Assembly: GCA_965368975.1 (NCBI GenBank)
Contig: CBDUPA010000011.1
Location: 96,001 to 160,000 of the forward strand
Direction: 5' to 3'
From: an uncultured bacterium
GTDB lineage: Bacteria; Acidobacteriota; Thermoanaerobaculia; Multivoradales; JAHZIX01
DNA: 64,000 nt
In this document: piece by piece, positions 4,011 to 63,932 of the stretch
How positions within the stretch are numbered: the first letter of the stretch is position 1
Layout: each line of letters opens with the position of its first letter
Notes under the pieces: generated by a model
What the model saw: only the letters and a program-made list of their open reading frames with translations
What the model was told of the DNA's origin: nothing
The model's database searches: none
Made by a program: the position numbers and the translations under genes

Positions 4011-4018
4011 GCGAAAGC

Positions 4019-6355: not shown

Positions 6356-6437
6356 TCACGGCTGAGCCGACGGGCGACCTGCCTCCATGCGGCTGGCGAG
6401 ATCCGGCCCACCTACAGCAACCAGGAACACTTCCGAC

Positions 6438-8252
6438 ATGACGACCACGCTAGAGACTGCCAAGGCGCAGATCGCAGACCTACTGCAGCCAGTGTGCGGC
6501 GACCAGCTCGAGATCAAGCATGCGCCGCCAAACGTCGATGCCCAGCTGGCGGTGCCCTTGTTCCGTGCCGCCAAAGAACAGCGCACTAATCCCAAACAGC
6601 TGGCCCAGGACGTTGCCGACAGCCTAGCACCCAAGCTCGCGGACACACTCTTCGCCGACGTCTCGGTGGCCGGTGGCTTCCTCAATTTCCGCTTCGACGC
6701 CGCGCGCTATCGCCGCAGTGTCGTCGATGACTTCCGCCGCCTGGGTGACGGTTACGGCGGCTCGGACATCGGTCACGGCAAGACGGTGGTCATCGACTAT
6801 TCGTCGCCCAACATCGCCAAGCCGTTCTCCGTCGGCCATCTGCGCTCGACGGTCATCGGCCAGTCGATCAAGAACATCCTCACCTGCCTCGGCTACACCG
6901 TCATCGGTGACAACCACATCGGCGATTGGGGCACCCAATTCGGCAAGTTGCTGCGTGCCTTCGAGCTGTGGGGCGATCGCGGCGAGGTCGAGAAGGACCC
7001 GATCCGCCAGCTGCTGGCGCTGTATGTGCGTTTCCACGACGAGGCTGAGCAGAACCCCGTGCTCGAGGAAGAGGCGCGCACGTGGTTCCGTCGTCTCGAA
7101 GACGGTGACGCGGAAGCAGTCGCGCTGTGGAAGTGGGTGGCGGAGGTCAGCTGGCAGGATTTCCAGCGTATTTACAGCCTGCTCGGTGTCGAATTCGAAG
7201 AAGTGCTGGGCGAGAGCTTCTACAACGACCGCCTGCAGCCAATCGTCGACGAACTGTTCGAGCGCGGGCTGGCCGAATGGAGTGTGCCACCCCAGAAGGA
7301 CAACGCCGAGAAGGGCCACGCTCAGGGCGAGATCGAGACGAAAGAAGACCCCGCTGCTGCGGACAAGGTGGCGCTGGTGCACCTCGAGGAGCACGGTATC
7401 GACACGCCGTTGCTGATCCAGAAGAGCGACGGTACGTCTCTCTATGCCACCCGCGACCTGGCGACGATTCGCTACCGCTGCGAGCGGTGGCAGCCGGTCG
7501 AGGTGCTCTACGTTGTCGGTGCTGAGCAGAAGCTCTACTTCCAGCAACTCTTCCTGGTCGCCGGCATGCTCGGTTGTGATACCCAGTGCGTGCACGTGCC
7601 GTTCGGTCTGATCCGTCTCGCCGAGGGCAAGATGTCCACCCGCAAGGGGCGGGTGATCTTCCTCGAAGACGTGCTGGCGGAAGCCGTGCGCCGGGCCGAG
7701 GAGGTGATCGAGGACCGCGACCTGAGCGCCGAAGAGAAACGCGATATCGCGCGCAAGGTGGGCCTCGGCGCCGTCAAATTCGCGGACCTTTCGCAGACCC
7801 GCACCAAAGACGTGCTCTTCGACTGGGACAAGATGCTCAGCTTGCAGGGCGATACCTCGCCCTACCTGCAATACGCGCACGCACGCATCCGTTCGATGCT
7901 GCGCAGCGCCGCCGAGCAGGGTCGCGAAGAGCAGGGTCACGCCGAGGAGATCTCGGCGGCTCAGATCGACGCCGATCTGCTCACCACGCCGGAAGAGACC
8001 GCCTTGCTCGAAGCGCTGGCCCGCTTTCCGGAGGCGATCCAGCAGGCCGCAGTCGGCTACCTGCCGCACCTGATCGCCAACTACTTGTTGGCCCTGGCCA
8101 AAGACTTCAGCGCTTTCTACCGCGAGGTGCCCGTGCTGCGAGCTGAAGGGGAGGCCTTGCGTCTCAGCCGGCTCGGCCTGTGTGCCGTCACTGCGCAGGT
8201 GCTGCAGCGTGGCCTGGGACTGTTGGGCATCGAATGTCCGGAGAAGATGTAG
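6438..8252 (+). CDS. argS: Arginine--tRNA ligase
   Basis: DYSSPNIAKPFSVGHLRS (HIGH-like), GDWGTQFG, KSDGTSLYATRDLA, KMSTRKG, YLQYAHARI; ATG 6438 chosen as start. Confidence 0.97.
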   Translation: MTTTLETAKAQIADLLQPVCGDQLEIKHAPPNVDAQLAVPLFRAAKEQRTNPKQLAQDVADSLAPKLADTLFADVSVAGGFLNFRFDAARYRRSVVDDFRRLGDGYGGSDIGHGKTVVIDYSSPNIAKPFSVGHLRSTVIGQSIKNILTCLGYTVIGDNHIGDWGTQFGKLLRAFELWGDRGEVEKDPIRQLLALYVRFHDEAEQNPVLEEEARTWFRRLEDGDAEAVALWKWVAEVSWQDFQRIYSLLGVEFEEVLGESFYNDRLQPIVDELFERGLAEWSVPPQKDNAEKGHAQGEIETKEDPAAADKVALVHLEEHGIDTPLLIQKSDGTSLYATRDLATIRYRCERWQPVEVLYVVGAEQKLYFQQLFLVAGMLGCDTQCVHVPFGLIRLAEGKMSTRKGRVIFLEDVLAEAVRRAEEVIEDRDLSAEEKRDIARKVGLGAVKFADLSQTRTKDVLFDWDKMLSLQGDTSPYLQYAHARIRSMLRSAAEQGREEQGHAEEISAAQIDADLLTTPEETALLEALARFPEAIQQAAVGYLPHLIANYLLALAKDFSAFYREVPVLRAEGEALRLSRLGLCAVTAQVLQRGLGLLGIECPEKM

Positions 8253-8371: not shown

Positions 8372-11041
8372 ATGCACCGATCTCTATGCCGGCACGCCCC
8401 GCTGTGGCCGCGTGTCGTCCTGGCTCTCGCCCTGGTTGTCGGCAGTGCTGGATTTGCGCCCCGGCTCGCCGCCCAGTCTGTACCCACCTTCGCCGAGGTT
8501 TCGGGCCACGCGTTCGGTGAGCGCATCACTGTGCACGCCGAGATGGTGCGCTATCTGGAGCGGCTGGCCGAGGTATCGGACCGCGTACAAATGATCGACC
8601 AGGGTGCCTCCTGGGAAGGTCGCGCCTTGCTGGTGGCCGTGGTGACGTCGCGGGAGAACCATGCCCGACTGGACGAGATCCGCGCCAACGCACAAGCCCT
8701 GGCAGATCCTCGCGCCTTGGATGCCGAGAGTGCGGCGCAGATCATCGAGAGCCAGCCGGCCATCGTCTGGCTGGGCGGTTCGATCCACGGCTTCGAGCTG
8801 AGCGGCAGTGAGGGGCTGCTCAAGTTGCTCGAACGCCTGAGCACGGCTGACGACGAGGCGACCCTGAAGGCGCTCGACCAAACCGTGGTGCTGATCGATC
8901 CGATGCTCAACCCTGACGGCCGCGATGCCTTCGCCCATTTCAACCACGCGCGTCTCGGCGGCGATCCAAATCCGCATCCGAACGATTGGTCCAATGACTT
9001 CACCTCCTGGGAAGCGCTGGGGTTCCGCACCGGTCACTACTTCTTCGATACCAACCGTGACTGGTTCGCTCAGACGCAGCTGGAGACTCGGCGGCGGGCT
9101 CCGACGTGGTTGCAATGGCGCCCGCAAGTCATCGTTGACGCACACGAGATGGGTGCCGACATGGAGTTCTTCTTCGATCCGCCCACCGAGCCGGTGAGCC
9201 CTCTCTACCCGGCTTTCTCCAGCCGCTGGCACGAGATCTTCGGCGCCGCCTATGCCGAAGCGTTCGACACCGCCGGCTTCGAATACACCACGCGCGATCT
9301 GTTCAACTACTTCTATCCCGGCTACAGCACCGCCTGGGGTAGTTACCAGGGAGCCGTCGGTCTGCTATTCGAGCAAGGCTCCAGCCGCGGCCTGGCGCTG
9401 ACCCGTGGTGACGGCACCACGCGCACGCTGCTGAATGCTACCGAGCAGCAGTACGAGGCGTCCTGGACCACCGTCCGCACGGCCGCCGAGCGTCGCCAGG
9501 AGCTGCTACAGGAGTACTACCAGAGCCATCGTGAAGCCCTTGCAGATGGCGCCCAGGGCGTACGTCGCTATCTGCTGAGCGGGGACTCCGACCCCTACTT
9601 GCTGGCCGAGGCGGTCGGCTTGTTGAAGCGCAATGGCATCGAGGTCCATCGCCTGACCGAGGACGTGCGCCTGAGCGGCGTGCGCGACCGCATCGGTGGT
9701 GAGACGGGGGAGCACACCTTCGCCGCCGGTACCTTCGTGATCGAGGCCGCGCAGCCACGCAGCCGCCTAGTCCGCAACCTGCTCGAACCGTCCGTCGAGA
9801 CACCGGCCGAGTTTCTGGCCGCCGCCCGCGAGCGGATCGACCGCGGTGAAGGCGCCCGCTTCTACGACATGACTGCCTGGTCGCTGCCGCTGCTGTTCAA
9901 TCTCGACGGCTACAGCTCCACCGACGGTCGCACCCTGCCGGCCGAGCACGTCGACACCGGCTCGCGCGTCGTCCAGGACATGCCGACGCCGCGCTACGCG
10001 TACGTGCTGCCCGGCGATCAGACCGCGTCGATCGCCGCCGCCTGGCATCTGCGCCGTCAGGGCTACCGCGTCATGGTCACGGGTCCCACCGCGACCCGCG
10101 TTGCCGGCCAAGATATCCCTGGAGGCAGCGTCGTGGTCCGTGTGCGTCAGGAGGCCGAACCGCAAACCGCTGCCCTGCCGGCCGCCATTCGAGATCTCAG
10201 CCGCCGCTATCGCCTGCGCGTCCTCGGCCTCGACACCGGGCGTCCGGACGGCCCAAGTCATCTGGCGCTCGGCTCGCGCGAAACGGTGCGCCTGCGGCCC
10301 GGCCAGGTCGGCCTCCTGGCGGAAGAGCCGTTCAGCGGCTATTCCTTTGGCTGGGCCTGGTACACCCTGGAGCGTCAGTACGGCATCCCCACCCTGGTTC
10401 TACGCTCCCGCTCGCTGGCGGAGCGTTCACTGGAAGACATCGAAGTCCTGGTGATCCCGGACACCTTCGGGTCACCGGCACGTGTCCTGGGTGAGGGGGG
10501 CATGGACCGCCTACGCCGCTGGGTGCGCGACGGTGGAACCTTGATTGCTCTCGGCGGTGCCGTCGAATTCGTGCGCAATGATCTCGAGCTGATCCAGCTG
10601 CGCTCCTGGTACCCGGACCCTTCGGGAGACTCCGGGCCTGATGGCGAGGACGCTGAACAGCCCCGGCGCTTCACGGTTCCGGGCGCCTTCCTCAACGGCC
10701 AGCTCGACACCTCCTCCTGGCTCACCGCCGGCTATCAGGACGAGCAGCTACCGTTCCTGGTGTTTTCCAGCCGTATCTACCAGGCGCCCAGCGGTCCGCC
10801 GAATGGGGGTCGTCGCGCCGTGGTCACCTTCCCCCAGGCGGACGAGGGCGAGCTGGTGCTCGCCGGCCACACCTGGGACGAGAGTGACGAACGTCTACCG
10901 GGCGCCGTCGGTGTCTACGTCGAGTCCGTCGGTGCCGGTCGCGTCGTGGCCTTCGCAGAGGACCCAAACTTCCGAGGTTACTGGCGCGGTGCCGACCGCC
11001 TGTTCCTGAATGCAGTGGTGCTGGGGCCGAGTGGTCCCTGA
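8372..11041 (+). CDS. Exported M14-family zinc carboxypeptidase with C-terminal class I glutamine-amidotransferase-like domain
   Basis: GGAGG RBS before ATG 8372; signal peptide; SIHGFE (HxxE), NPDGR, DTNRD, DAHEMG; 'WVRDGGTLIALG' C-terminal domain. Confidence 0.85.
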   Translation: MHRSLCRHAPLWPRVVLALALVVGSAGFAPRLAAQSVPTFAEVSGHAFGERITVHAEMVRYLERLAEVSDRVQMIDQGASWEGRALLVAVVTSRENHARLDEIRANAQALADPRALDAESAAQIIESQPAIVWLGGSIHGFELSGSEGLLKLLERLSTADDEATLKALDQTVVLIDPMLNPDGRDAFAHFNHARLGGDPNPHPNDWSNDFTSWEALGFRTGHYFFDTNRDWFAQTQLETRRRAPTWLQWRPQVIVDAHEMGADMEFFFDPPTEPVSPLYPAFSSRWHEIFGAAYAEAFDTAGFEYTTRDLFNYFYPGYSTAWGSYQGAVGLLFEQGSSRGLALTRGDGTTRTLLNATEQQYEASWTTVRTAAERRQELLQEYYQSHREALADGAQGVRRYLLSGDSDPYLLAEAVGLLKRNGIEVHRLTEDVRLSGVRDRIGGETGEHTFAAGTFVIEAAQPRSRLVRNLLEPSVETPAEFLAAARERIDRGEGARFYDMTAWSLPLLFNLDGYSSTDGRTLPAEHVDTGSRVVQDMPTPRYAYVLPGDQTASIAAAWHLRRQGYRVMVTGPTATRVAGQDIPGGSVVVRVRQEAEPQTAALPAAIRDLSRRYRLRVLGLDTGRPDGPSHLALGSRETVRLRPGQVGLLAEEPFSGYSFGWAWYTLERQYGIPTLVLRSRSLAERSLEDIEVLVIPDTFGSPARVLGEGGMDRLRRWVRDGGTLIALGGAVEFVRNDLELIQLRSWYPDPSGDSGPDGEDAEQPRRFTVPGAFLNGQLDTSSWLTAGYQDEQLPFLVFSSRIYQAPSGPPNGGRRAVVTFPQADEGELVLAGHTWDESDERLPGAVGVYVESVGAGRVVAFAEDPNFRGYWRGADRLFLNAVVLGPSGP

Positions 11042-11044
11042 GCG

Positions 11045-11734
11045 TCAACCGGGTGCGGCTCCGGTCACGATGCGGCGCACGATCATGTAGACGATGCCAC
11101 CGATCAGGCCGCCGACGTTGAACGCCACGTGCACCACGACGGCTGGCAGCAAACTACCACTGACTTCCCGGAAGTACGCCGCGGCGAAGCCGAGCGCCGT
11201 CGTGGCGACGACCAGGATCACGCAGGTCCAGACATCGGCGCCGATGAAGAAGAGCGACAGGTGCATGGCACCGAAGACCAGAGCACTGGTCGGAACAGCT
11301 GTCCCCAGGCGGCTTCCATCGCTCGCGGACCGAACCCAGCTCTGGATCAGGCCGCGGGTGAAGATCTCTTCGGTAAAGCTGGACCAGAGCCAGACCCACA
11401 AGACCAGTTGGGGTAGCGTGAAGCCCTGCAGCATGGGATGACCTTGGGCGGGTGTGGCCAGGATCGCGACGGTGGTCAAGGCTCCCAGCAGCAGGCCGAT
11501 CCCGGTGATCTTGCGCCAGGCCGTGCCCGGGGCGGCGCGAAAGCCGAACTCGGCAAAGCTGCGCTTGTCGACCGCCATCAGCAGCAGACTGACGACCAGC
11601 ATTGCGGCCTTGAGCAGAGCGTGCTGATCGATGGTATCGAGGTCGCGGCCGAGCGAGCCGAGTCCCCAGCTGAGCCCACCGAAGAGCATGAGAGCCAGTA
11701 CGAAAGCGGTGACCGGATGCAGCGAAGGTCTCAT
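11045..11734 (-). CDS. CPBP/Abi (CAAX-protease-like) intramembrane glutamic endopeptidase
   Basis: EEIFTRG, FGAMH and HVAFN motifs in a multi-TM protein; 4-nt overlap with upstream regulator. Confidence 0.9.
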   Translation of the reverse strand: MRPSLHPVTAFVLALMLFGGLSWGLGSLGRDLDTIDQHALLKAAMLVVSLLLMAVDKRSFAEFGFRAAPGTAWRKITGIGLLLGALTTVAILATPAQGHPMLQGFTLPQLVLWVWLWSSFTEEIFTRGLIQSWVRSASDGSRLGTAVPTSALVFGAMHLSLFFIGADVWTCVILVVATTALGFAAAYFREVSGSLLPAVVVHVAFNVGGLIGGIVYMIVRRIVTGAAPG

Positions 11735-12594
11735 GACCGGGTCCTTTCTGGAGCCATGCCCAGGCGTCGGAAAAGCTGTCGTTGGCCGGGTAGCTCGGTG
11801 TTGTGAAAGAAGCGCTGCCGTTCGAGCAACTCAGCGAACGGCGGAGGCAAGGGGTGCTGATCGTGCAACTCGGCGATGGCGTGGTACGTCTGCTCCATGC
11901 CCAGGCCGGCATGGAGCAAGCAGGCGAGATACAGGCTGTCCGTCCAGAGAGCTTGATGGACCTCGCTCAGGTCCTCGTGCAACAGGGCTAGCAAAGCCTC
12001 TCTGGCATCCACCGCGACGTTGAGCTGTTGACTTCGCCAGAAGCTGCGCACGCGCTCGTGCTGCCAGGTCAGTGTCACCTGACAGCCAGCAAGATCGACG
12101 GGATCGTAGGCCTGTACGTAGACTTCGACCCCACGTGCCGCGGTTTCCTGGAGCTGTTGACGAAGACCCTCAAGGGTCTCGGGGAACGCATCGACGACCG
12201 CCATCTTGCTCGCCCGCTGGAGCATCGCACTGGCCCGCTCCAGCACCGCCGGCACGGTCCGTAGTTGGTAGATGCGTTCCTGTGCGGCAGCTGGTTGGAG
12301 GTCCCGGAGCTCCTCGGCCGCCCGCTGCTTCTGCTCTCGGAACTGACGCTCCAGCTGACCGAGGAACTCGTCCACCGGCGCGGCGCGGCAGCGACGTGGT
12401 TCGCCCTGTTCGAGGGTGACCGCACCTTTGAGCGCCAGAGCTTCGATCGCCTTGTAGACGTTGGCCGTCGCCTTCCCGAGCGCCTTGCCGACGCGGTAGG
12501 CCGTCTCGGGTTCCGCCTGGGATAGAAGGTGCGTGTAGACCTCGGCTTCCAACTGATTGAGGCCGAGTTCACGGAGTGTCTCGAGGGTAGCCAT
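11731..12594 (-). CDS. TrmB-family transcriptional regulator
   Basis: N-terminal 'LRELGLNQLEAEVYTHLL...VYKAIEALALKG' winged HTH typical of TrmB, followed by effector-binding-like domain. Confidence 0.85.
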   Translation of the reverse strand: MATLETLRELGLNQLEAEVYTHLLSQAEPETAYRVGKALGKATANVYKAIEALALKGAVTLEQGEPRRCRAAPVDEFLGQLERQFREQKQRAAEELRDLQPAAAQERIYQLRTVPAVLERASAMLQRASKMAVVDAFPETLEGLRQQLQETAARGVEVYVQAYDPVDLAGCQVTLTWQHERVRSFWRSQQLNVAVDAREALLALLHEDLSEVHQALWTDSLYLACLLHAGLGMEQTYHAIAELHDQHPLPPPFAELLERQRFFHNTELPGQRQLFRRLGMAPERTRS

Positions 12595-54622: not shown

Positions 54623-57600
54623 GTGCTCCGTTCTCTGACTACTGCCTGTGTCGCGTCGCTGGTTCTGCTCTTGTCTTCCTGGTGCTCGGTTCCTCTGGAT
54701 GCGGCTGAGGAGCGCGCCAAGAAGGAAGACTGGGACGTCAATGCCGCGCACGGCTCCACGCGCACGGTCACCTTCACCACCGACGAAGGCACCTGGATGC
54801 CGCTCGACGTGCATCCCGACGGCCGCCACCTGGTCTTCGCCCTGCTCGGCGATCTCTACCTGCTGCCGATCGAGGGCGGCGAGGCGGTGCGGCTCACCGA
54901 GGGACCGGCGTTCGACACGCAGCCGCGCTTCAGCCCGGATGGTCGTCAACTGGCTTTTGCCAGTGACGGTGAGGGTTCCGAGAACCTGTGGCTGGCCGAC
55001 TTCGTGCGCGGCGAGGACGGCACCTACAGCTTGCACCAGCCGCGCCAGCTGAGCGACGAAGACGAGGTCACCGGTCCTGAGTGGACGCCGGACGGTGACT
55101 ACCTGATCGGGCGCAAACGCACTACCGGCCAGTCGAGCATCGGTGTCGTCGAGCTGCGGCTGTGGCACGTGCGCGGTGGCGAGGGTGTGGTCCTCACCGA
55201 TACCTCAAAGCTGCGCGATGCCGCTGCGCCGCAGGTGTCGCCGGACGGCCGCTTCGTCTACTTCGCCGGGCGCGCCGGCGGCTTCCGGTACGACCGTAAC
55301 GTCTACGACGGTATCTGGCAGCTTGCCCGGCTCGACCGGCGGAACGGCGAGGTGCAGCCGCTGACCGACGTCTTCGGCGGAGCCGCCGCGCCGCGCCTGA
55401 GCCCGGATGGCCGGCAAGTCGCTTTCGTGCGCCGCGTCGACGCCGCCACAGAACTGCAGCTGCTGGACCTGCAGCGCGGCACCGTACGGCAGCTAGCGCG
55501 TGGTGTCACGCGCGATCAAATGCAGGGCTTCGCCGTTCATGGCAACTTCCCGGGCTATGCCTGGATGCCGGATGGAGCCTCGATCGTAGCTACCGCGGAG
55601 GGCAAGATCTGGCGCTTTGACGTTGCGACAGGCCTTCGTACGGCGATTCCCTTCCAGGCACGGGTGGAGCAGGAAGTGCACGACGCCCTGCGCTGGCCGC
55701 GCCGCCTGCAAGGTCCCGGAACGGACGAGGTGCGTGCGCGTCTGTTGCGCTGGCCGGTCGAGGTGGCGGCCGGCGACGGCAAGCTGCTGCTTTTCTCCGC
55801 GGTCGGTCACCTCTATGGCCAGCGTCTGGACGCTACGGGCCAGGTGCAGGGCGAGCCCTTCCGGCTCACGGACGCCGAGCAGCTGGAGTACGCACCAGCC
55901 CTGTCCCCGGACGGACGCCGTCTTGCCTACACGAGCTGGGACGACTCGATGGCGGGTGGCCACCTCTGGCTCGTCGATCTCGATGCCGCCACAGGCCAGC
56001 TCGGCGAGCCGCGGCGTCTGACCCAGTACCCGGGCCAGTATGCCAATCCGTCCTTCTCGCCGGACGGCCGAAGGCTGGTGTACCTGGCGGGCAGCGGCAG
56101 TCCGCAGCGCGGCCGCAGCCTGGAAGCGGAGCTGTGGCATCGATTGCTTTGGATCGATGTCGAATCCGATGGTGCCGACTCGGGCGCCGGCTTCAGTGAG
56201 CCTCACTTCATCGTCGACACCTCCAACCGGGGCAGCAACCGAGCCATGACGCGTCCCGTGTTCTCGCCCGATGGCGAGCGCGTCTTCTTCGTCGACAGCG
56301 CCGAGGGCGGTTTCAGCCGCCGCGAACTACCGCCGACCCAGCTGGTGTCCGTGCGCCTGGACGGCAGCGACCGCCGCGAGCATCTACAGTGGCCCAAGGC
56401 AGAAGAAGCGATCCCGTCGCCGGACGGCCGCTGGGTGCTCTATCGCGAGTTGCAGGATGCCTACCTGGTGCCCTTGCCGCTGGCCGGTAGCGAGCCGGTC
56501 GAGGTCAAGGCCAAGGGCGGTCCTTTGCCGGTCGTCCAGCTCACCGATGGCGAAGGAGCCCTGTGGCTGAACTGGGCGGAGGCCGGCAGCACACTGACCT
56601 GGATCCACGGTCCGATGTACTCGCGCGTGCCGCTGGCGAGAGCTCTTGCGCAGCCCGATGAGAACCGGGCCGATGAGAACCGGGCCGATGAGAACCGGGC
56701 CGACGAGCCCCGGCCGGAAGAGACCGCGCCCGAGCTGGAAGGCGAAGCGGAGAAGGAGGAGACGCACAAGCCGGCTCTGCAGGTCGACCAAACCGAGATC
56801 ACGCTCCGCCTTCCGCGGCATCTCGGTCGTGGCGTCGTCGCCTACCGCGGCGCTCGCGTCGTACCGATGACCGCCAGCTCGGACGACCCCGCCACGACGC
56901 CGATCATCGAAGACGCCGTTCTGCTGGTTGACGGCCACCGCTTGAGGGCTGTCGGTCCCGCCAGCGAGGTCGAGATTCCCGCGGACGCCGAAATCGTCGA
57001 CCTGACGGGCAAGACTGTCATTCCCGGCTTCGTCGACATCCACGGTCACCCGCACTACGCCACGCTCGACATCCTGCCGCGCCGTCCCTGGCAGTACCAC
57101 GCCAACCTCGCCTACGGCGTCACCACCATCCACGATCCGTCGGCACCCAACCACGAGGTCTTCACCCTCGCCGAGATGGTCGAGGCGGGCGAAGTCGCCG
57201 GCCCGCGCATGTTCTCCACCGGCTATGTCATCTACGGCGCCACCGACGCCCACAACATCCGCATCAAGAGCCTGGACGACGCTCGCAAGCAGGTGCGCCG
57301 GTTGCAGCAGCTGGGTGCGATCAGCGTCAAGTCCTACGAACAGCCGCAGCGTCAGCAGCGTCAATGGTTGATCCAGGCCGGCCGCGAAGCCGGCATGATG
57401 GTGATGCCCGAGGGCGGCGGCAACCTGGAAGCCAATATCACCATGATCCACGATGGTCACACCACCATCGAGCACGCTGTCAGCGTTGCGCCGCTGTACC
57501 AGGACGTGCGCACGCTCTTCGCCGAGAGCGGCACCGCATACACGCCGACACTGGAAGTCGTCTATGGGGGCTTGTCCGGTTTCAACTGGTTCTTCCAACA

Positions 57601-58057
57601 CTACGACGTCTTCCGCGATGCCAATCTCGCCCGCTTCGTGCCTCAAGACGTGCTGCAGCGTGAAACGCGGATCCGCGACGTCATGGCGCCGGACGAAGAC
57701 TGGCAACACCTCGTCCTGTCCGCGCGCGACACGCGCGACATTCTGCGCGCCGGCGGCCGCGTGTGCCTGGGAAGCCACGGTGAGATGCAGGGCCTGGGCG
57801 CGCACTGGGAGATCTGGAGCTTCGTCCAGGGCGGTATGACCCCCGCCGAAGCTCTCGCCGCCGCCACCCGCCTACCCGCCGAAGTCCTCGGCCTGGACGG
57901 TGACATCGGCACCCTCGAGGCCGGCAAGCTGGCGGACTTCGTGGTGCTCGGCGCCGACCCGCTGGAGAAGATCGAGAACACCGACTCCGTCGAGCTGGTG
58001 GTCAAGGGAGGTGTGCGCTACACCCCGGATGAGTTGGCGATTTTTCCGGTGCCCTGA
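54623..58057 (+). CDS. Exported PD40/TolB-like propeller + amidohydrolase fusion
   Basis: Signal peptide; TDEGTWMPLDVHPDG; many SPDG repeats; IPGFVDIHGH, TIEHA, GSHGEMQGLGAHWE, GKLADFVVL. Confidence 0.87.
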   Translation: MLRSLTTACVASLVLLLSSWCSVPLDAAEERAKKEDWDVNAAHGSTRTVTFTTDEGTWMPLDVHPDGRHLVFALLGDLYLLPIEGGEAVRLTEGPAFDTQPRFSPDGRQLAFASDGEGSENLWLADFVRGEDGTYSLHQPRQLSDEDEVTGPEWTPDGDYLIGRKRTTGQSSIGVVELRLWHVRGGEGVVLTDTSKLRDAAAPQVSPDGRFVYFAGRAGGFRYDRNVYDGIWQLARLDRRNGEVQPLTDVFGGAAAPRLSPDGRQVAFVRRVDAATELQLLDLQRGTVRQLARGVTRDQMQGFAVHGNFPGYAWMPDGASIVATAEGKIWRFDVATGLRTAIPFQARVEQEVHDALRWPRRLQGPGTDEVRARLLRWPVEVAAGDGKLLLFSAVGHLYGQRLDATGQVQGEPFRLTDAEQLEYAPALSPDGRRLAYTSWDDSMAGGHLWLVDLDAATGQLGEPRRLTQYPGQYANPSFSPDGRRLVYLAGSGSPQRGRSLEAELWHRLLWIDVESDGADSGAGFSEPHFIVDTSNRGSNRAMTRPVFSPDGERVFFVDSAEGGFSRRELPPTQLVSVRLDGSDRREHLQWPKAEEAIPSPDGRWVLYRELQDAYLVPLPLAGSEPVEVKAKGGPLPVVQLTDGEGALWLNWAEAGSTLTWIHGPMYSRVPLARALAQPDENRADENRADENRADEPRPEETAPELEGEAEKEETHKPALQVDQTEITLRLPRHLGRGVVAYRGARVVPMTASSDDPATTPIIEDAVLLVDGHRLRAVGPASEVEIPADAEIVDLTGKTVIPGFVDIHGHPHYATLDILPRRPWQYHANLAYGVTTIHDPSAPNHEVFTLAEMVEAGEVAGPRMFSTGYVIYGATDAHNIRIKSLDDARKQVRRLQQLGAISVKSYEQPQRQQRQWLIQAGREAGMMVMPEGGGNLEANITMIHDGHTTIEHAVSVAPLYQDVRTLFAESGTAYTPTLEVVYGGLSGFNWFFQHYDVFRDANLARFVPQDVLQRETRIRDVMAPDEDWQHLVLSARDTRDILRAGGRVCLGSHGEMQGLGAHWEIWSFVQGGMTPAEALAAATRLPAEVLGLDGDIGTLEAGKLADFVVLGADPLEKIENTDSVELVVKGGVRYTPDELAIFPVP
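56657..56701 (+). repeat. Three exact 15-bp tandem copies (DENRA)3
   Basis: gatgagaaccgggcc x3, then a degenerate fourth unit. Confidence 0.95.
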
Positions 58058-58102
58058 ATCGGGCGCGCAAGTGTGCTCATCAATGCGCTCATCCGGGCCT
58101 AT

Positions 58103-59419
58103 CTATCCCACCGGTACAGCGGGCACCGAGTGGGGGTCGAGGCGGCGCAGGAAAGCGTAGCCGATACCGGCCAGGCCGAACTGGAGCCCGGGGGTCTCGG
58201 CACCGTCCGGGACGCCGCAGGGCCAGGGCTGGTCGTCGTGGAGGTGTTGGTCGAGGGCCTGTGCCGCCGCGTCCACCCATGGCATCTGGTCTGGGGTCTC
58301 TTGGTCTGGGGTGTCTGGGTTTGGGGTCTCTGGGTTTGGGGCCTGCCTTTGCGTCGCCGGCCGAGCGGGGGGACGAGAGGTTGTCTGCAGGTCGTGTCGG
58401 CCGCGCTCGATCCAGGGTTCGTGGTCGAGAATCTGGCCCAGGCGCAACAGGCTCCAGGCGATGCCCGCGCCAGGGTCGTCGTCCTTGAGGCTGGGTTCGT
58501 CGCGATCGAGGGAGCTGCGGTGGTCGAGGCTGTGGAGGGCCTGCTGGATCGCACCTTCGGCGGTGGTGCGCAGCTGCGGCTCGCCCGTGAGGCGCCACAA
58601 CTCGGCCAGGAAGATGGCGATGCCGGCGGTGCCGTTGGCGAGGTCGGGGCCCAAGGCGCCGTAGGTGGGCCCTGAGCCCTTGGGCTGCGGTAGCCAGCCC
58701 AGCCAGTTGCAGCGCCCCTGGTGCCAGATCGCGTCGCGGCACAGGCGCCGGCCGAGGTGGCTGACGGCCTGCAAGTAGGGGGCGTTCTCCGACTCCTCCG
58801 TCAGGCCGTTCCTCCCGGGCAGCAGTGCCTCCGTGAGCGGCGGTACCTCGGGCACGAGTGCCCGCCGCAGTTGGTCGGACAGGTGCAGCTGTAGTAGGTG
58901 GACGGTGGTCGTGAAGAAGCGGCGACTGACGCAGAGCACCGCGGCGTCGGGGCGGCCGTAGCGGTCCGGATCCGCAAGGCACTCGAGGCGGAAGGGAACC
59001 AGGGCCTGGTTCAAGGTGTCGGTCACCGAGGCCACCAGCTCGGCGGCGTGCGTCGCGGGCACGTGGAAGGAGAAGTGCACGGTCAGGGCGTCTTCGAGCC
59101 CGTCCCCGAGCCGTTCGCCGTAGGCGACGTAGCGGCTGTTGGGCTCGTCGACCTCCTCGTACCCCGCCCGCAGGTAGATCTCGTCGCCCACCTGTGGCGG
59201 CCGCCCATCAATGGGGTTGAGGAACTCACCGGCAAGCGGGACGCGCTGGCGGTCGCCCTTGGTCACGGAGAGGCGGTCGTTGTATTCGTCGATGCTCTCG
59301 ATCCGCCATCCCTTGTCCCAGCGTTCACGGCTGCGGTTGGCCTGCGACAGGGTTTGCAGGAAGGCCGCTCCCCGCGCGGAGGTCTGTCTGGGAGGTACCG
59401 GGGAGAGTGGAAGGCTCAT
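58103..59419 (-). CDS. Compact fusion of a HopA1-like (LanY-type lyase) domain and a partial LanC-like domain; degenerate
   Basis: LSQAN..RWDKGW, LNQALVPFRL, YGRPDAAVL (HopA1-like); DLANGTAGIAIFLAEL, GAGIAWSLL, PGLQFGLAGIGYAFLR (LanC-like); AGGAG RBS. Confidence 0.72.
   Translation of the reverse strand: MSLPLSPVPPRQTSARGAAFLQTLSQANRSRERWDKGWRIESIDEYNDRLSVTKGDRQRVPLAGEFLNPIDGRPPQVGDEIYLRAGYEEVDEPNSRYVAYGERLGDGLEDALTVHFSFHVPATHAAELVASVTDTLNQALVPFRLECLADPDRYGRPDAAVLCVSRRFFTTTVHLLQLHLSDQLRRALVPEVPPLTEALLPGRNGLTEESENAPYLQAVSHLGRRLCRDAIWHQGRCNWLGWLPQPKGSGPTYGALGPDLANGTAGIAIFLAELWRLTGEPQLRTTAEGAIQQALHSLDHRSSLDRDEPSLKDDDPGAGIAWSLLRLGQILDHEPWIERGRHDLQTTSRPPARPATQRQAPNPETPNPDTPDQETPDQMPWVDAAAQALDQHLHDDQPWPCGVPDGAETPGLQFGLAGIGYAFLRRLDPHSVPAVPVG
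58285..58344. repeat. Four degenerate 15-bp G-rich tandem units
   Basis: tctggtctggggtct / cttggtctggggtgt / ctgggtttggggtct / ctgggtttggggcct. Confidence 0.8.
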
Positions 59420-59437
59420 GGGGGTCTCCTGGAGCGT

Positions 59438-60571
59438 TCAGAGAGCGAGTAGCTCGGCTGCGCTCTGATCGGGGTCGTGCAGCATGTCGGCCGCCGTTTG
59501 CAGCATGACGATGCCCTGCCCGGTCATCTCCGGCACTTGCATCAGGTGCTCGTAGGCGCTCTGCAGCAGGCGTGCACCGGCATGGCGGAAGGTGCGTTGC
59601 AGCTGCGGCCGTGCGTCCGCGACGTTCCAGCCACGGCCCTGGCAGTAGGCGTGCCACAACGCCAGGGCCGACGGCTGGAGCTGGCGCAACGGAACCTGGG
59701 CGTATTCCGGAAGCTGGTCGGGGTTGGTCCCGGTCGGAGCCTTCATCGACAGGATCCAGGACAGCAGGAAGGCCTGTAGCAGGGACCCGACATCCCAGGC
59801 AGCATCGCTGATGTCGGCCAGCTCCCAGTCGACGAAGTACAGCCGCGGCTCGGCGTCACCCTGCTGGGCGGCGTCACCCTGCGGGGCCGTGTCCTCCTGG
59901 GTTGGCAGGATGATGCAGTTGTCCCACTTCATGTCGCCGTGGATCAGGCTGTCGAAGCGCCAACTGGCGTTCAGCTGCTCGATCTGGGCGGTGAGCTCGG
60001 GCCGGGAGCGCAGGAAGTCCACCATCGCGATCGTGCCGCCGGTGGTGACGGGACCGGCGTTGTCGGCTTGGTGCAGGCGCAAGATCCACGGCGTCTTGCG
60101 CGGAAAGATCGGACTCTCCGGAGGCTCGACCTGCTGGGCGAGTTCGAAGACGCTGACCGCGTGGTAGGTCGCGAGCCCTTCGCCCAGGAGTCGGGACAGG
60201 TCGGGCGGGCAGGTGTCGAGCTGCTCCAGGAACTCGGTCAGCGAAGAGCCAGGTAGTAGCTCGATAACCAGGCAAGGACGGGCGATGTCGTAGTCCAGCC
60301 AGCGTGGTAACAGGCGGGCCAAGGTGGGTGCGGATCCGCTGTGTGCCAGCTGGTAGCAGGCCGCCTCGCGGTGCAGGTAGGCGGCTTCGAAGTCGTCGAG
60401 GATTGGTGGCTGCTTGATGAACAGGCTGCCACCACTTCCGCGGTGCACCCGGAAGTTGCGGTTGCGGCCACCGACGCTAATGACGCGGAAGGTACCGTCG
60501 ATGATCGATGCGGCGTCCAGGTGGCCTCAGCCCATCAGGTAGTGAGCAAGATTGGTCGTAGTGAGGAACAT
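59438..60571 (-). pseudogene. APH-family (LanK-like) phosphotransferase interrupted by in-frame TGA at codon 15 (pseudogene or recoded)
   Basis: GGAGAG RBS + ATG 60571: MFLTTTNLAHYLMG*GHLDAASIIDGTFRVISVGGRNRNFRVHRG.. in frame with ORF 59438..60448; intact LFIKQ, LIHGDMKWDN, FVDWELA. Confidence 0.75.
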
Positions 60572-60654
60572 GTGCGGCTCTCCGATCCAGCCTGGAACTC
60601 GGACAATCCTGTCATAGCACTGTCACCGTGCAAGCCTTGGTACACTTCAAGGTC

Positions 60655-61812
60655 ATGCGGAATTCGTTCACCACCTCGAAGGCCCAGCGATGGGCGGCCG
60701 TGACGCCGTCTCAGGGGGCACGGTTTCTCAGGCTGCTGGGCCTGCTGCTCGCGTCGTACCTGCTGCTCCCGGCCACCGCGGAGTCGCCTGCGCCGGAGGC
60801 GCGCCGTTCTATCGACGAGGCCGCTACAGGCACGGCCGCGCTGCCCTTTCTGCGCGGCATGACGGTCACCTGCCCGCGCAGTGGACAGATCTGGGGCAGC
60901 GGACACATGCGCGAGGCGCTGCGCGAACTCAAGAGTCTGGGCGTCGAGTGGGTAGCGATTCATCCCTACGCCGGCATCCGTCGCGATGGCTCCATCCGCT
61001 CGACGCCGGCCGGGCGCACCGGCTACCTGGATCGGGCTATCGACATCGCACGTGAGGAAGGCGTCAACCTGTTCTGGAAGCCGCACCTGGCCTATTGGGG
61101 GCAATTCGACTGGCGAGGGGCCATCACCTTTGGTGATGACCAGGCCGCCTGGAACCGCTTTTTCGCGGACTATCGAGAGTTCCTACTCGATCACGCCCGT
61201 TTCGCCCAGCGCGCCGGGATTCCGCTGCTGGCTGTCGGGGTCGAGCTGGAAAGGACCACTTTCTATGACGCGCAGTGGCGTCAGCTGATTGCCGACGTCC
61301 GCCAGGTGTACCAGGGGCGTATTGTCTACGCTGCCAACTGGGATCGACTTGCGCTCGTGCCCTTCTGGGATGCTGTTGACTACATCGGTGTGCAGGCGTA
61401 CTTTCCGCTCAGCCGTGACCCGGATCCGGACCAGCGAGCGCTGGAATTCGGCTGGCGCCAGCACCTCGCTCAGCTACGTTCGCTGTCACGGCGCTACGGC
61501 GACAAGCCGGTGTTGTTCACCGAGATCGGCTACAACCGTTCCGACACCGCGGCGCTCGAACCGTGGGCTTACGAGGTCCGCGATTCGACCCGCAATCGAG
61601 CGCTGCGGCAGCGCTTGATGGACGTTGCCTTTGATCTGGCCGAGCAGGAACCGATGGTTCGAGGTTTGTTCTGGTGGAAATGGATGCCCGGATCCGTGGC
61701 ATACTCGAACTTCTCGATGCGCGACCCCGAAGCCATCGAATCCCTACGCCGTGCCTGGGCGCCCACGAAAAGCATTGAGCTAGAGACTCGGGTACTCCAT
61801 ACACCCGAGTGA
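60655..61812 (+). CDS. Glycoside hydrolase family 113-like (TIM barrel), exported
   Basis: FWKPHL, WRGAI, GVELE, YAANWD, IGVQAYFPL, LFTEIGY, GLFWWKW. Confidence 0.8.
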   Translation: MRNSFTTSKAQRWAAVTPSQGARFLRLLGLLLASYLLLPATAESPAPEARRSIDEAATGTAALPFLRGMTVTCPRSGQIWGSGHMREALRELKSLGVEWVAIHPYAGIRRDGSIRSTPAGRTGYLDRAIDIAREEGVNLFWKPHLAYWGQFDWRGAITFGDDQAAWNRFFADYREFLLDHARFAQRAGIPLLAVGVELERTTFYDAQWRQLIADVRQVYQGRIVYAANWDRLALVPFWDAVDYIGVQAYFPLSRDPDPDQRALEFGWRQHLAQLRSLSRRYGDKPVLFTEIGYNRSDTAALEPWAYEVRDSTRNRALRQRLMDVAFDLAEQEPMVRGLFWWKWMPGSVAYSNFSMRDPEAIESLRRAWAPTKSIELETRVLHTPE

Positions 61813-61825
61813 AGGAGAGCAGAGT

Positions 61826-62401
61826 ATGGGACTGGAAGCCGCATTTCCCGGTCACCGCGAGATGGTGACGATGTTGGACCACGCTGTGCAACAGCCGTCA
61901 CCGGAAGACATCACCGCCAACCTCACGGATGGCATGAGCCGGCTGATTGCCGACGGCACAGTACGCCTTCCGGAGGCACTGCGTCAGCCGTGCGGCGATC
62001 ACTACGCCCGGCGCCTGCTCTACCGCAGTGACGACCTGGGCTATGTCGTGGTCGCCATGATCTGGGGGCCGAAGCAGGGTACCGCCCTGCACGACCACGA
62101 CGGTACGTGGTGTGTCGAGGGCGTGCTGGAAGGTCAAATCGAGGTCATCCAGTACGACATGCTGGAGAACCAGGGCGACCGCTGCCGGTTCCGCTGTATG
62201 GGATCCTCGCGCACGGGTGTCGGTACGGCTGGTAGCTTGATTCCGCCCTACGAGTACCACACCATCGCCAACGCTCAGTCGGAGGTCCCGGCCATCACGC
62301 TGCACGTCTACGGTCGTGAGATGAGCGAATGCCGGGTCTTCGAGCCGGTGGAAGCGGACTGGTATCAGCGTAGTGTACGCGCCCTGGCCTACGACAACTG
62401 A
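61826..62401 (+). CDS. Cysteine dioxygenase-family (thiol dioxygenase) cupin
   Basis: HYARRLL, W.P.QGT.LHDH, EYHTI.N, TLHVYG; AAGGAG RBS. Confidence 0.87.
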   Translation: MGLEAAFPGHREMVTMLDHAVQQPSPEDITANLTDGMSRLIADGTVRLPEALRQPCGDHYARRLLYRSDDLGYVVVAMIWGPKQGTALHDHDGTWCVEGVLEGQIEVIQYDMLENQGDRCRFRCMGSSRTGVGTAGSLIPPYEYHTIANAQSEVPAITLHVYGREMSECRVFEPVEADWYQRSVRALAYDN

Positions 62402-62431
62402 CCTGGAACCTCTGAGGTAGTAAGGCACCAA

Positions 62432-62848
62432 GTGACGCGTTTCGTCGTGCTGGCGGTTCCGCTGCTCGTGTTGGTCATGGCGGTGTTCAATTTCACTGCC
62501 GAGCAGCTCGGCTATGCCACGTCCGAGAACCTACCGGGCAGGACGCTGGTCAGCGTCTGGATCCTCGAAAGTCTGGGGCTGACGGCGCTCTTCTTGCTGG
62601 TGCAGGGGAGAGCCGGTAACCGCTGGCTCAGCGGTCTGGCCAGTGGCTGGATCGCCTGGGTGTTCCGGGGCCCGCTGCTGGTGATCACTGTCGCCGGCAT
62701 TCTGCCCAACTTGCGCCGCGACTGGTGGTCCATTTCGGTTGGGTGGCTGGTGCTCTACACGCTGTGCGGTCTGGCGCTGGCGTTCCTCGATCGTCCCGCT
62801 TCCATTACCGAAGAGACCACCGTCGAAGAACCCACTGCTCCGGCGTGA
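62432..62848 (+). CDS. Small four-TM membrane protein, unknown function
   Basis: Four hydrophobic segments; fits the gap between the dioxygenase and PKS genes. Confidence 0.6.
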   Translation: MTRFVVLAVPLLVLVMAVFNFTAEQLGYATSENLPGRTLVSVWILESLGLTALFLLVQGRAGNRWLSGLASGWIAWVFRGPLLVITVAGILPNLRRDWWSISVGWLVLYTLCGLALAFLDRPASITEETTVEEPTAPA

Positions 62849-62858
62849 GAACTTGGGC

Positions 62859-63932
62859 ATGAGGATTGCGGCGGTCGGCAAGGCGCTGCCGAGGCACTAC
62901 TACGACCAGCAGCAGTTGCTCGATGCCTTGCGCGAGCTGTGGACACAGCGGCACTACAATCCCGAGCGCCTGGAACGCCTGCACCGCAACGTACTGGTCG
63001 GTGGTCGGCACCTGGCCTTGCCGCTCGAGGACTACTCAGCCCTGGCCACCTGGGGGGAAGCCAATGACGCCTGGATCGAGGTCGCCCAGGACGTCGGCGA
63101 ACGAGCGGTTCGTGATGCTCTGCAGCGTGCCGGCCTACAGCCGCACGATGTCGATGTACTGATCTTCGTGACGGTCACCGGCATCGCGACGCCATCGATC
63201 GACGCCCGACTGGTCAACCGCCTGGGCCTCAAGCCGCAGGTCAAGCGCCTGCCGATCTTCGGCCTCGGCTGCGTTGCCGGCACCGCGGGAGTTGCTCGTG
63301 CCGCCGACTATGTACGCGCCTTTCCGCGCCAAGTCGCAGTGTTGCTGTCCGTCGAGCTGTGCTCGCTGACGCTGCAGCGGGAGGACTTGTCGATTCCCAA
63401 CCTGATTGCCTCCGGCCTCTTCGGTGACGGCGCCGCGGCCGTCGTAGTGGTCGGCGCCGAGCATCCGCGGGCGTCCAGCGCTCAGCCGATGATTGTCGAC
63501 AGCCGTTCCGTCTTCTACCCGGACACCGAGGATGTCATGGGCTGGAACATCTCGGAGCGCGGCTTCCAGATCGTGCTCTCCGCGGACGTGCCCAAGGTGA
63601 CGCGGGACTTCCTGCGCCGGGACGTCGATGCCTTCCTCTCCGAGCACGGTCTGGCGCGTGACGACATCGGTTGCTGGGTCTGTCATCCGGGCGGCCCCAA
63701 GGTGCTCGAGGCGATGCAGTTGGCCTTGGAGTTGCCGGCTGGCGCGCTTGACGTCACCTGGCGCCAGTTGCGCGAAGTCGGCAACTTGAGTTCAACCTCC
63801 GTCTTGCTGGTGTTGCGCGAGTCCTTGCAGCGCCACCAATCCGGCGAGCAGCCGCTCGATCCGGGATCGTTTGGCTTGATGCTGGCCATGGGGCCCGGAT
63901 TCTGCTCGGAGCTGGTTTTGTTGCGCTTCTGA
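62859..63932 (+). CDS. Type III polyketide synthase (SrsA/BpsA-like)
   Basis: Catalytic triad contexts GLGCVAG, CHPGGPK, GNLSS; VELCSL, LFGDGAAA, AMGPGF; ATG 62859. Confidence 0.93.
   Translation: MRIAAVGKALPRHYYDQQQLLDALRELWTQRHYNPERLERLHRNVLVGGRHLALPLEDYSALATWGEANDAWIEVAQDVGERAVRDALQRAGLQPHDVDVLIFVTVTGIATPSIDARLVNRLGLKPQVKRLPIFGLGCVAGTAGVARAADYVRAFPRQVAVLLSVELCSLTLQREDLSIPNLIASGLFGDGAAAVVVVGAEHPRASSAQPMIVDSRSVFYPDTEDVMGWNISERGFQIVLSADVPKVTRDFLRRDVDAFLSEHGLARDDIGCWVCHPGGPKVLEAMQLALELPAGALDVTWRQLREVGNLSSTSVLLVLRESLQRHQSGEQPLDPGSFGLMLAMGPGFCSELVLLRF

Follow-up and report, generated by a model that had tools for sequence, protein, structure and literature searches.

This analysis concerns a pair of co-oriented open reading frames (ORFs) on the minus strand of a 64,000-nt stretch of DNA (hereafter the window; positions 96,001 to 160,000 of contig CBDUPA010000011.1, GenBank assembly GCA_965368975.1) from an uncultured bacterium of the Acidobacteriota. 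One ORF (58103-59419) encodes a 438-aa fusion of a HopA1-type (LanY-like) lyase segment with remnants of a LanC-type cyclase, and the other (59438-60571) is the frame of an APH-type (LanK-like) kinase, a gene set resembling that of class V lanthipeptides among the peptides that are made by the ribosome and modified after translation (RiPPs). The locus is neither an active lanthipeptide synthetase nor a new machine, but a deletion-derived dead variant of a known kinase-lyase-cyclase module (K-Y-C, with Y-C or YC denoting a lyase-cyclase fusion). As the original prediction, made from the sequence before any database search, had described, the two genes lie between a secreted-looking PD40-amidohydrolase gene (54623-58057, plus strand) and a GH113 gene (60628-61812, plus strand), and each is preceded by a Shine-Dalgarno-like sequence, AGGAG at 59430-59426 before the ATG of the fusion gene and GGAGAG at 60583-60578 before the kinase ATG at 60571. 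The intergenic gaps around the pair measure only 45, 18 and 56 nt, so that a precursor gene cannot fit at the locus, again as predicted.

The identity of the fusion gene (stop codon TAG at 58103-58105) was established with Pfam profiles, a structural model and Foldseek. The protein scored 45.1 bits against HopA1 (PF17914; cut-off 22.7, E 1.3e-11) over residues 95-212, a match that spans profile positions 9-122 of 170 only, and 37.5 bits against LANC_like (PF05147; cut-off 23.2, E 1.4e-09), with the best stretch at residues 256-303 (profile positions 3-48 of 350) and a second, C-terminal stretch. Additionally, residues 207-334 match the cyclase region 541-668 of the NCBIfam LanM family (E 2.5e-21). 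An AlphaFold2 model was built from an alignment (A4) of the fusion, a sister sequence (P0002) and 78 HopA1-LanC proteins of full length (630-842 aa); it has a mean predicted local distance difference test score (pLDDT) of 85.1 and a predicted template modelling score (pTM) of 0.80, with low confidence only at the N-terminus, at residues 201-211 and in a Pro-rich linker at 356-374. In a Foldseek search against the PDB, the top matches of this model were the LxmY lyase chains 9dk3_B, 9dk1_B and 9dk2_B (E 8e-8 to 1.5e-7), followed by LanM and LanCL1. A wider family profile (A3) likewise matched 9dk1_B in the PDB (E 6.8e-23), and a search with the two short forms alone returned only LicM2, weakly (E 0.005).

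The HopA1/LanY-like part comprises residues 1-212 (58784-59419, minus strand) in alignments A3 and A4. It lacks the N-terminal 70-80 aa or so of the family as well as the C-terminal third of the domain, and the N-terminal LY..Y columns and the SFGxxR columns are gaps, which agrees with the earlier observation that the HopA1 part stops early. Residues 201-211 (58787-58819, minus strand), with pLDDT below 50, form the junction between the two parts and are probably the scar of the deletion that fused them. The LanC part begins with an N-terminal remnant at residues 213-347 (58379-58783, minus strand), identified by alignment, model helices and the NCBIfam LanM match, which consists of a beta segment ahead of the barrel and the first two of the helix hairpins, GxxG motifs included (model helices 264-278, 281-304, 316-331 and 334-347). 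A low-confidence linker rich in Pro, Thr and Asp follows at residues 348-379 (58283-58378, minus strand; pLDDT about 50) and replaces roughly 190-235 alignment columns of the LanC core, including the His, WCHG and CHG columns. The last LanC repeat closes the protein at residues 380-438 (58106-58282, minus strand; PWPCGV...GLAGIGYAFLRRL) and shares 40-62% of its residues with the C-termini of full-length LanC domains. Colinear matches to P0354, P0374 and P0316 had offered an internal LanC repeat as the origin of this C-terminal piece, and that origin was ruled out by the same 40-62% identity to the extreme C-terminal LanC ends.

The LanC fold is a seven-hairpin alpha/alpha barrel in which the Cys of WCxG and the Cys-His of CHG are the zinc ligands and a His is the acid/base residue. 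The window protein has two N-terminal hairpins and one C-terminal repeat in the model, short of seven, and the WCxG and CHG motifs, reported missing, fall in deleted columns. Nineteen residues of the linker are not present in P0002. Short imperfect codon repeats, absent from the sister sequences, were noted both in this linker (PNPETPNPDTPDQETPDQ, within 58283-58378, minus strand) and in the kinase gene (APQGDAAQQGDAE, 59830-59900, minus strand); these runs look like lineage-specific repeat expansions in surface loops.

The catalytic positions of the lyase are also lost. In alignment A4, codon 146 is GAG (Glu; 58982-58984, minus strand) where 77 of the 78 relatives have Lys (column 292; CaoY Lys219 in the motif FR(L/F)K), and codon 163 is TGC (Cys; 58931-58933, minus strand) where 74 have Tyr (column 310; CaoY Tyr236); the two substitutions, FRLEC and DAAVLC, had been recognised in the original prediction. 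Additionally, codon 115 is CAC (His; 59075-59077, minus strand) where Arg is found in 78/78 relatives (column 261), the position of CaoY Arg187, although this mapping is one residue off in spacing (31 vs 32) and is the least certain of the three. The CaoY numbering was transferred by motif, spacing and a profile alignment to LxmY 9dk1_B rather than by direct alignment to CaoY; the spacing FR(L/F)K-x9-R-x6-Y (FR(L/F)K...R.DA.VLY) agrees with CaoY Arg217, Lys219, Arg229 and Tyr236. The sister P0002 has Asn, Gln and Cys at the lyase Arg, Lys and Tyr columns, and both short forms are gapped at the SFGxxR columns, in which the Gly and Arg are found in 78/78 relatives. Within the LanC domain, the window protein is gapped at the His (72/78 in relatives), the WCxG Cys (74/78) and the CHG motif (73/78). 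Among the 98 columns with at least 85% conservation, the window fusion matches 44, gaps 41 and differs at 13.

With the lyase Arg, Lys and Tyr replaced and the LanC core deleted, the product should therefore be unable to eliminate phosphate or to form thioether rings; judged from its sequence, the fusion is catalytically dead and belongs to a K-Y-C offshoot unable to make lanthionine. The effects of single replacements in CaoY, as given in PMC9486802, are in line with this: the K219A variant yielded phosphorylated peptide only and still co-purified with the kinase, and R187A nearly abolished elimination and retained phosphorylation. Two closer full-length relatives of the window LanC part, P0003 (750 aa) and P0039 (419 aa), have the whole barrel length and lack WCHG and CHG, and P0003 retains the lyase Lys and Tyr. 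Zinc ligands are missing in about 4-5 of the 78 full-length fusions, and in the clade of P0003, P0039 and the window protein, loss of the ligands may have come before the deletions.

The kinase frame (59438-60571, minus strand; 377 codons) was recognised by translation and alignment, and scores 40 bits against Pfam APH (PF01636; cut-off 23.2, E 4.8e-10) and 56.7 bits against the NCBIfam LxmK family (NF038156), far below the equivalog cut-off of 315. Combined with the profile matches of the fusion, this bears out the predicted assignment of the pair to an APH/LanK-like kinase, a HopA1/LanY-like lyase and a LanC remnant, now with domain boundaries. The prediction had further taken the kinase to be intact from 60571 and had overlooked an in-frame TGA at codon 15 (60527-60529, minus strand). 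From the ATG at 60571 the frame reads MFLTTTNLAHYLMG, then the TGA (60529-60527), then a typical kinase N-terminus in the same frame. All 7 aligned homologues have Arg at the stop position, including the 82%-identical sister P0122 (YLMARGHLD). Selenocysteine insertion or other recoding of the TGA was ruled out: the position is that of a conserved Arg, and TGA also terminates the kinase gene itself and the neighbouring amidohydrolase gene, so that it is an ordinary stop in this genome and recoding is unlikely.

The longest uninterrupted kinase ORF in the ORF list and the alignment starts at GTG 60448 and encodes 336 aa (59438-60448, minus strand). This GTG is the only common start codon in frame after the TGA, and no Shine-Dalgarno-like sequence stands before it. 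Codons 1-41, which precede it, are as conserved as the remainder of the gene, and the 336-aa product, without these first 41 residues, has lost the N-terminal strands and the conserved RNRNF loop; the equivalent loop of LxmK becomes ordered upon ATP binding, according to the review PMC12141560. The catalytic residues are kept (K53, HGD..N at 211-218 and DWE at 248-250 in full-frame numbering), and the columns of the Lys, of HGD..N and of the Asp of DWE are invariant in 51 sequences including the window kinase. A complex prediction for the 336-aa kinase ORF and the fusion, run without controls, gave a score of 0.01 (mark 0.32) and was counted neither way.

Relatives of the fusion were taken as the 150 best representatives from 1.84 billion clusters. 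Of these, 115 are 701-850 aa long and 12 are 601-700 aa long, both domains are present in the 78 representatives aligned in A4, and P0002 is the only other short form among the 150. The HopA1-LanC fusion is therefore common in sequence databases, and the proposal of a new architecture is weakened by the abundance of full-length Y-C fusions and by the short form, which looks like a deletion product of a K-Y-C operon. A literature search, with subscription journals outside its coverage, found no description of Y-C fusion proteins. The genome itself holds a second, full-length pair on another contig (C1), made up of a kinase of 376 aa and a fusion of 760 aa with its domains complete (locus L007, 9538-11820), to which the window pair is only 25-42% identical. 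Searches for DNA of the sister sequence returned 3 loci on genome contigs (best-segment identity 32-56%, over short stretches) and 10 on metagenome contigs (29-55%), none of them close; among 40 relatives searched, a match was found in 14 (15 of 41 with the organism's own genome included), the strongest at 35-39% identity, and none was a short form.

The nearest full-length relatives are separate genes: the kinase P0123 (47% identity), the lyase P0251 (360 aa, 47%, with its Arg, Lys and Tyr intact) and the cyclase P0030 (456 aa), for all of which the longest contig is given as 11776 nt. In the loci L020, L021, L022, L027, L033 and L034, too, K, Y and C are separate genes, with operons in two genomes of the same family (L033 and L034) and in metagenome-assembled genomes (MAGs) of three other phyla (L020, L021 and L022). 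The original statement that LanC is normally a separate gene holds only with reservations, given how common the fused form is. In a further alignment (A6), the window protein tracks the lyase P0251 as far as "...AEDPGN" and then the cyclase P0030 from "...AFLETAA". Given this switch and the separate genes of the nearest relatives, the simplest history would be an in-frame deletion across the 3' end of a lyase gene and the 5' end of a cyclase gene, followed by a deletion of the cyclase core.

Modules of this family, whether K-Y-C or K-YC, repeatedly adjoin genes for Hanks-type Ser/Thr kinases (STK) with TPR or PD40 domains, sigma-54 activators and extracytoplasmic function (ECF) sigma factors. 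The paralogue locus L007 of the same genome (C1 726000-745999) has two STK-TPR genes, two ECF sigma factors and one FHA-GAF-sigma54 activator; L033 (genome G003) has two STK-TPR genes and a sigma54 activator, L034 (G005) one of each, and L021 an STK-PD40 gene. Elsewhere in the window's own genome (L008, contig C18, 296-3796, plus strand), a class II LanM-type synthetase of 1166 aa is encoded, with DUF4135 (E 1.6e-122) and LANC_like (E 8.4e-71) domains.

Sequences from a sister lineage allow the recent history of the locus to be followed. These are P0002 (416 aa, a short fusion), P0122 (372 aa, a kinase with an intact N-terminus) and P0389 (a GH113 fragment), and all three report the same 6093-nt longest Logan contig, so that the neighbourhood appears conserved. 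The short fusion that the original prediction had proposed to seek in related genomes was thus found, in this one sister only. The window and sister sequences are 85% identical in the fusion (aligned columns, with three whole-codon indels), 82% in the kinase (one whole-codon indel) and 94% in GH113 (269/286, no gaps). The deletions and the loss of the lyase Lys and Tyr are common to the window fusion and P0002; these changes therefore predate the split of the two lineages, and both frames have remained open since. As called, P0389 starts at the equivalent of Met94 of the window GH113 ORF and ends near residue 380; either the window ORF was given too early a start, or the sister gene is truncated or was called in another way.

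Constraint was assessed by comparing the window-versus-sister substitutions with the conservation of the same columns in the wider family. Kinase substitutions fall on 12% of the most conserved third of columns vs 24% of the most variable third (p 0.0009), and those of the LanC remnant on 9% vs 25% (p 0.0018). Relative-rate counts (13 v 7, 13 v 15 and 18 v 10) gave no significant excess in either lineage, and the lack of a rate excess on the window branch suggests that the stop is recent. From these sequence comparisons, the kinase and the LanC stub are taken to be under a constraint that is relaxed yet real, the dead lyase to be drifting, and the kinase of this genome to have been broken recently.

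In six related loci (L034, L025, L029, L031, L022 and L020), a conserved protein family is encoded just upstream of the kinase gene. Its members have a conserved N-terminal domain of about 100 aa, with the invariants V..DP, G..G, RLY, E.P and G...W, after which comes a tail that is rich in Cys, Thr and Pro and often repetitive, for a total of up to 426 aa. The genes lie directly upstream of the kinase on the plus strand at L034:6597-7877, L025:676-1806, L022:5546-6289 and L020:4827-5597 and 5727-6593, and matches to the domain were found by tblastn at L029:3240-3566 and L031:45-395. The L034 and L025 proteins match at E 3e-25, and those of L029, L031 and L022 and the two L020 copies match as well. 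The sources span several phyla and include a genome of the same family, JGI metagenomes, a Phaeodactylibacter MAG and a Solirubrobacteraceae MAG. The domain gave no match to Pfam (two members searched, from L034 and L025) or to NCBIfam (five members searched). These proteins look like lanthipeptide precursors with a large leader and multiple cores, and a conserved Cys/Thr-rich precursor beside the kinase gene indicates that these relatives are real RiPP-type clusters. The family has no match in the window and a single tblastn hit in the whole genome, at E 0.47, although the genome could encode a precursor from another family at some other place; no precursor was seen adjoining the C1 paralogue.

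A different arrangement was observed in a genome of the same order (L036, G006:C1:504000-523999), where three adjacent genes on the minus strand (11510-12514, 10590-11507 and 8455-10593) encode a 334-aa protein with about 25 Thr-rich repeats (GPTTTAVGEE-like) and no Cys, an ATP-grasp RiPP maturase (TIGR04187, E 8.8e-21) and a 712-aa HopA1-APH (lyase-kinase) fusion without LanC. The trio lies 2.5 kb from a PD40-amidohydrolase gene (2503-5907, minus strand) whose product is 40% identical to the neighbour of the window pair, and may be a hybrid cluster for a dehydrated, graspetide-like product.

The window locus can be placed among known systems. As in CaoK-CaoY (cacaoidin) and LxmK-LxmY (lexapeptide; PDB 9DK1-9DK3), the gene of an APH-fold kinase adjoins that of a HopA1-like lyase. 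Unlike CaoY and LxmY, the window lyase has Glu, Cys and His for Lys219, Tyr236 and Arg187, lacks the SFGxxR and N-terminal segments and is fused to a LanC remnant, and unlike the CaoK and LxmK loci, the kinase is interrupted by a stop and no precursor was found. Class V pathways with a true LanC cyclase are those of SmoC and SpcC (Pei et al. 2022, as cited in the review PMC12328550), and the ancestral module of kinase, lyase and zinc LanC, as in L020, L021, L022, L027, L033 and L034, resembles them; the window LanC differs in having 3 of 7 helix hairpins and neither the His nor the zinc ligands. The uncharacterised full-length HopA1-LanC fusions of about 700-850 aa, found in genomes and metagenomes and including that of L007, share the domain order and the kinase directly upstream, but are about 330 aa longer and retain the lyase Arg, Lys and Tyr, SFGxxR, the His, WCHG and CHG in 72-78 of 78. 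The cyclase domains of class III LanKC enzymes are also LanC-like folds without zinc ligands, but they have the whole barrel and are active, whereas the barrel core of the window protein is deleted.

Combined, the results are best described by a history to which we assign a probability of about 0.5, in which the locus is a degenerate class V-type K-Y-C offshoot that was retained for a while as a kinase paired with a pseudo-enzyme and is in the process of disappearing from this genome. The ancestor would have had three genes, lanK for a kinase of the APH type, lanY for a phospho-Ser/Thr lyase of the HopA1 type and lanC for a zinc cyclase, as in class V pathways with a true LanC. Through an in-frame deletion, lanY would have lost its 3' end and lanC its 5' end, and the two would have become one gene, later deletions would have removed LanC repeats 3 to 6 with the acid/base His and the Cys-Cys-His zinc site, and the lyase Arg, Lys and Tyr would have been replaced. 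The pair would have persisted for some time under relaxed selection as a kinase with a catalytically dead partner, which may have kept the kinase soluble by analogy with CaoK/CaoY and LxmK/LxmY, and the kinase would then have gained the nonsense codon 15 in this genome. With this codon, the locus has most likely ceased to function in this genome and is heading for loss. The original prediction had offered a decaying RiPP locus or a repurposed scaffold; decay is the better supported of the two by the replaced residues, the lost LanC core, the missing precursor and the stop, but simple decay is incomplete as a description, given a sister with open frames and an intact kinase, and given substitutions that spare family-conserved columns of the kinase and the LanC remnant. 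Several points weigh against the favoured history. The stage as a kinase with a partner derives from protein comparisons with a single sister sequence, and the placement of P0002, P0122 and P0389 on one contig, like that of P0123, P0251 and P0030, was deduced from equal contig sizes and sources. In the HopA1 part, substitutions do not spare the conserved columns (19% in the conserved third vs 16% in the variable third, p 0.6), and at two of the three dead catalytic sites the lineages have different residues (H/N and E/Q); both observations point to drift. The kinase and the fusion have diverged about 3x more than GH113 (82% and 85% vs 94%), and if the ratio of nonsynonymous to synonymous substitution rates (dN/dS) of GH113 were about 0.3 or more, both could be close to neutral. 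Finally, the TGA is known only from the assembly and could be an assembly error, which would leave the kinase intact here.

The last point touches a rather unlikely alternative, in which the pair is a working, repurposed kinase whose dead lyase-cyclase remnant serves as an obligate scaffold, phosphorylating Ser/Thr of a protein or a distal peptide with no elimination; the TGA would then be an assembly error, read through or bypassed by re-initiation. The same short architecture beside an intact kinase in the sister lineage fits such a kinase, as do the retained kinase catalytic residues, the confident predicted fold of the fusion (pLDDT 85.1, pTM 0.80), the family-like constraint in the LanC remnant and the kinase, and the Shine-Dalgarno-like sequences before both genes with their 18-nt spacing. 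Precedents exist in CaoY, whose Lys-to-Ala variant still binds CaoK in a complex that still phosphorylates (PMC9486802), and in LxmK and LxmY, which are unstable if expressed singly (review PMC12141560). Re-initiation, however, would have to use GTG 60448, without a ribosome-binding site, and the stop at codon 15 takes away the N-terminal strands and the nucleotide loop. The HopA1 part, where the kinase interface would be expected, shows no family-like constraint (p 0.6), and the fusion lacks the N-terminal segment from which, in LxmY, R55 makes a salt bridge with the kinase (PMC12141560); moreover, no substrate gene lies close by or could be recognised in the genome, and just two such short sequences were found. 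A related proposal, possible if doubtful, is that the fusion is a selectively maintained pseudo-enzyme, its dead lyase and three-hairpin LanC stub being only the stabilising and specificity subunit of an APH-type kinase for proteins or peptides, so that a lanthipeptide dehydratase-cyclase would have turned into a phosphorylation-only system with its substrate encoded elsewhere, still working in the sister and freshly broken in this genome. The opposite extreme, a relic functionless in both lineages since before their split, with frames left open by the rarity of stop codons at 67% G+C and the short time elapsed, is unlikely. It would account for the missing catalytic equipment of two of the three enzymes and the lack of a precursor, for the dead sites that differ between lineages (H/N, E/Q), for the uniform substitution over conserved and variable columns of the HopA1 part and for a divergence 3x that of the neighbour gene; long spurious ORFs are frequent in the window, and one nonsense mutation is already present. 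Against a relic of this age, changes are fewer at family-conserved columns of the kinase (p 0.0009) and the LanC remnant (p 0.0018), the length differences between lineages are all whole codons (three in the fusion, one in the kinase) and neither lineage has lost the catalytic residues of its kinase. Additionally, with GH113 at 94%, a rough estimate puts the identity expected under neutral drift well under 82-85%, unless the dN/dS of GH113 is unusually high.

The remainder of the surroundings was also surveyed. A promoter and terminator scan of 57900-60900 found 0 and 0 sites (0.3 and 0.8 in shuffled sequences), which is uninformative for such organisms. A scan of the window for short Cys- or Ser/Thr-rich ORFs returned only out-of-frame ORFs over real genes, as expected at 67% G+C, and was counted neither way. 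On the 3' side of GH113, a tightly spaced one-strand cluster (61826-63932, plus strand), unrelated to the kinase and fusion pair, carries genes for a CDO_I-like cupin (cysteine dioxygenase, E 2.9e-07), for a membrane protein of 138 aa and for a type III polyketide synthase, in which the N and C domains of chalcone/stilbene synthases match at E 2e-20 and 1e-19.

Should selection have maintained the pair, it would be a natural counterpart of CaoY K219A, a dehydratase of class V that goes no further than phosphorylation, and would reveal which parts of LanY and LanC are required only as a partner of the kinase. If it is only a relic, the locus would illustrate the stepwise decay of a RiPP module, with the precursor lost, the catalytic residues replaced, the domains trimmed in frame and a nonsense mutation gained, and it would be a caution for genome mining, since such loci should not be counted as lanthipeptide clusters. 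Two by-products of the analysis are possibly more useful than the locus itself: the Y-C fusions of about 700-850 aa, which are the dominant form among the relatives, and the N-terminal precursor domain with its Cys/Thr/Pro-rich tail, which marks the precursors beside K-Y-C modules in several phyla.

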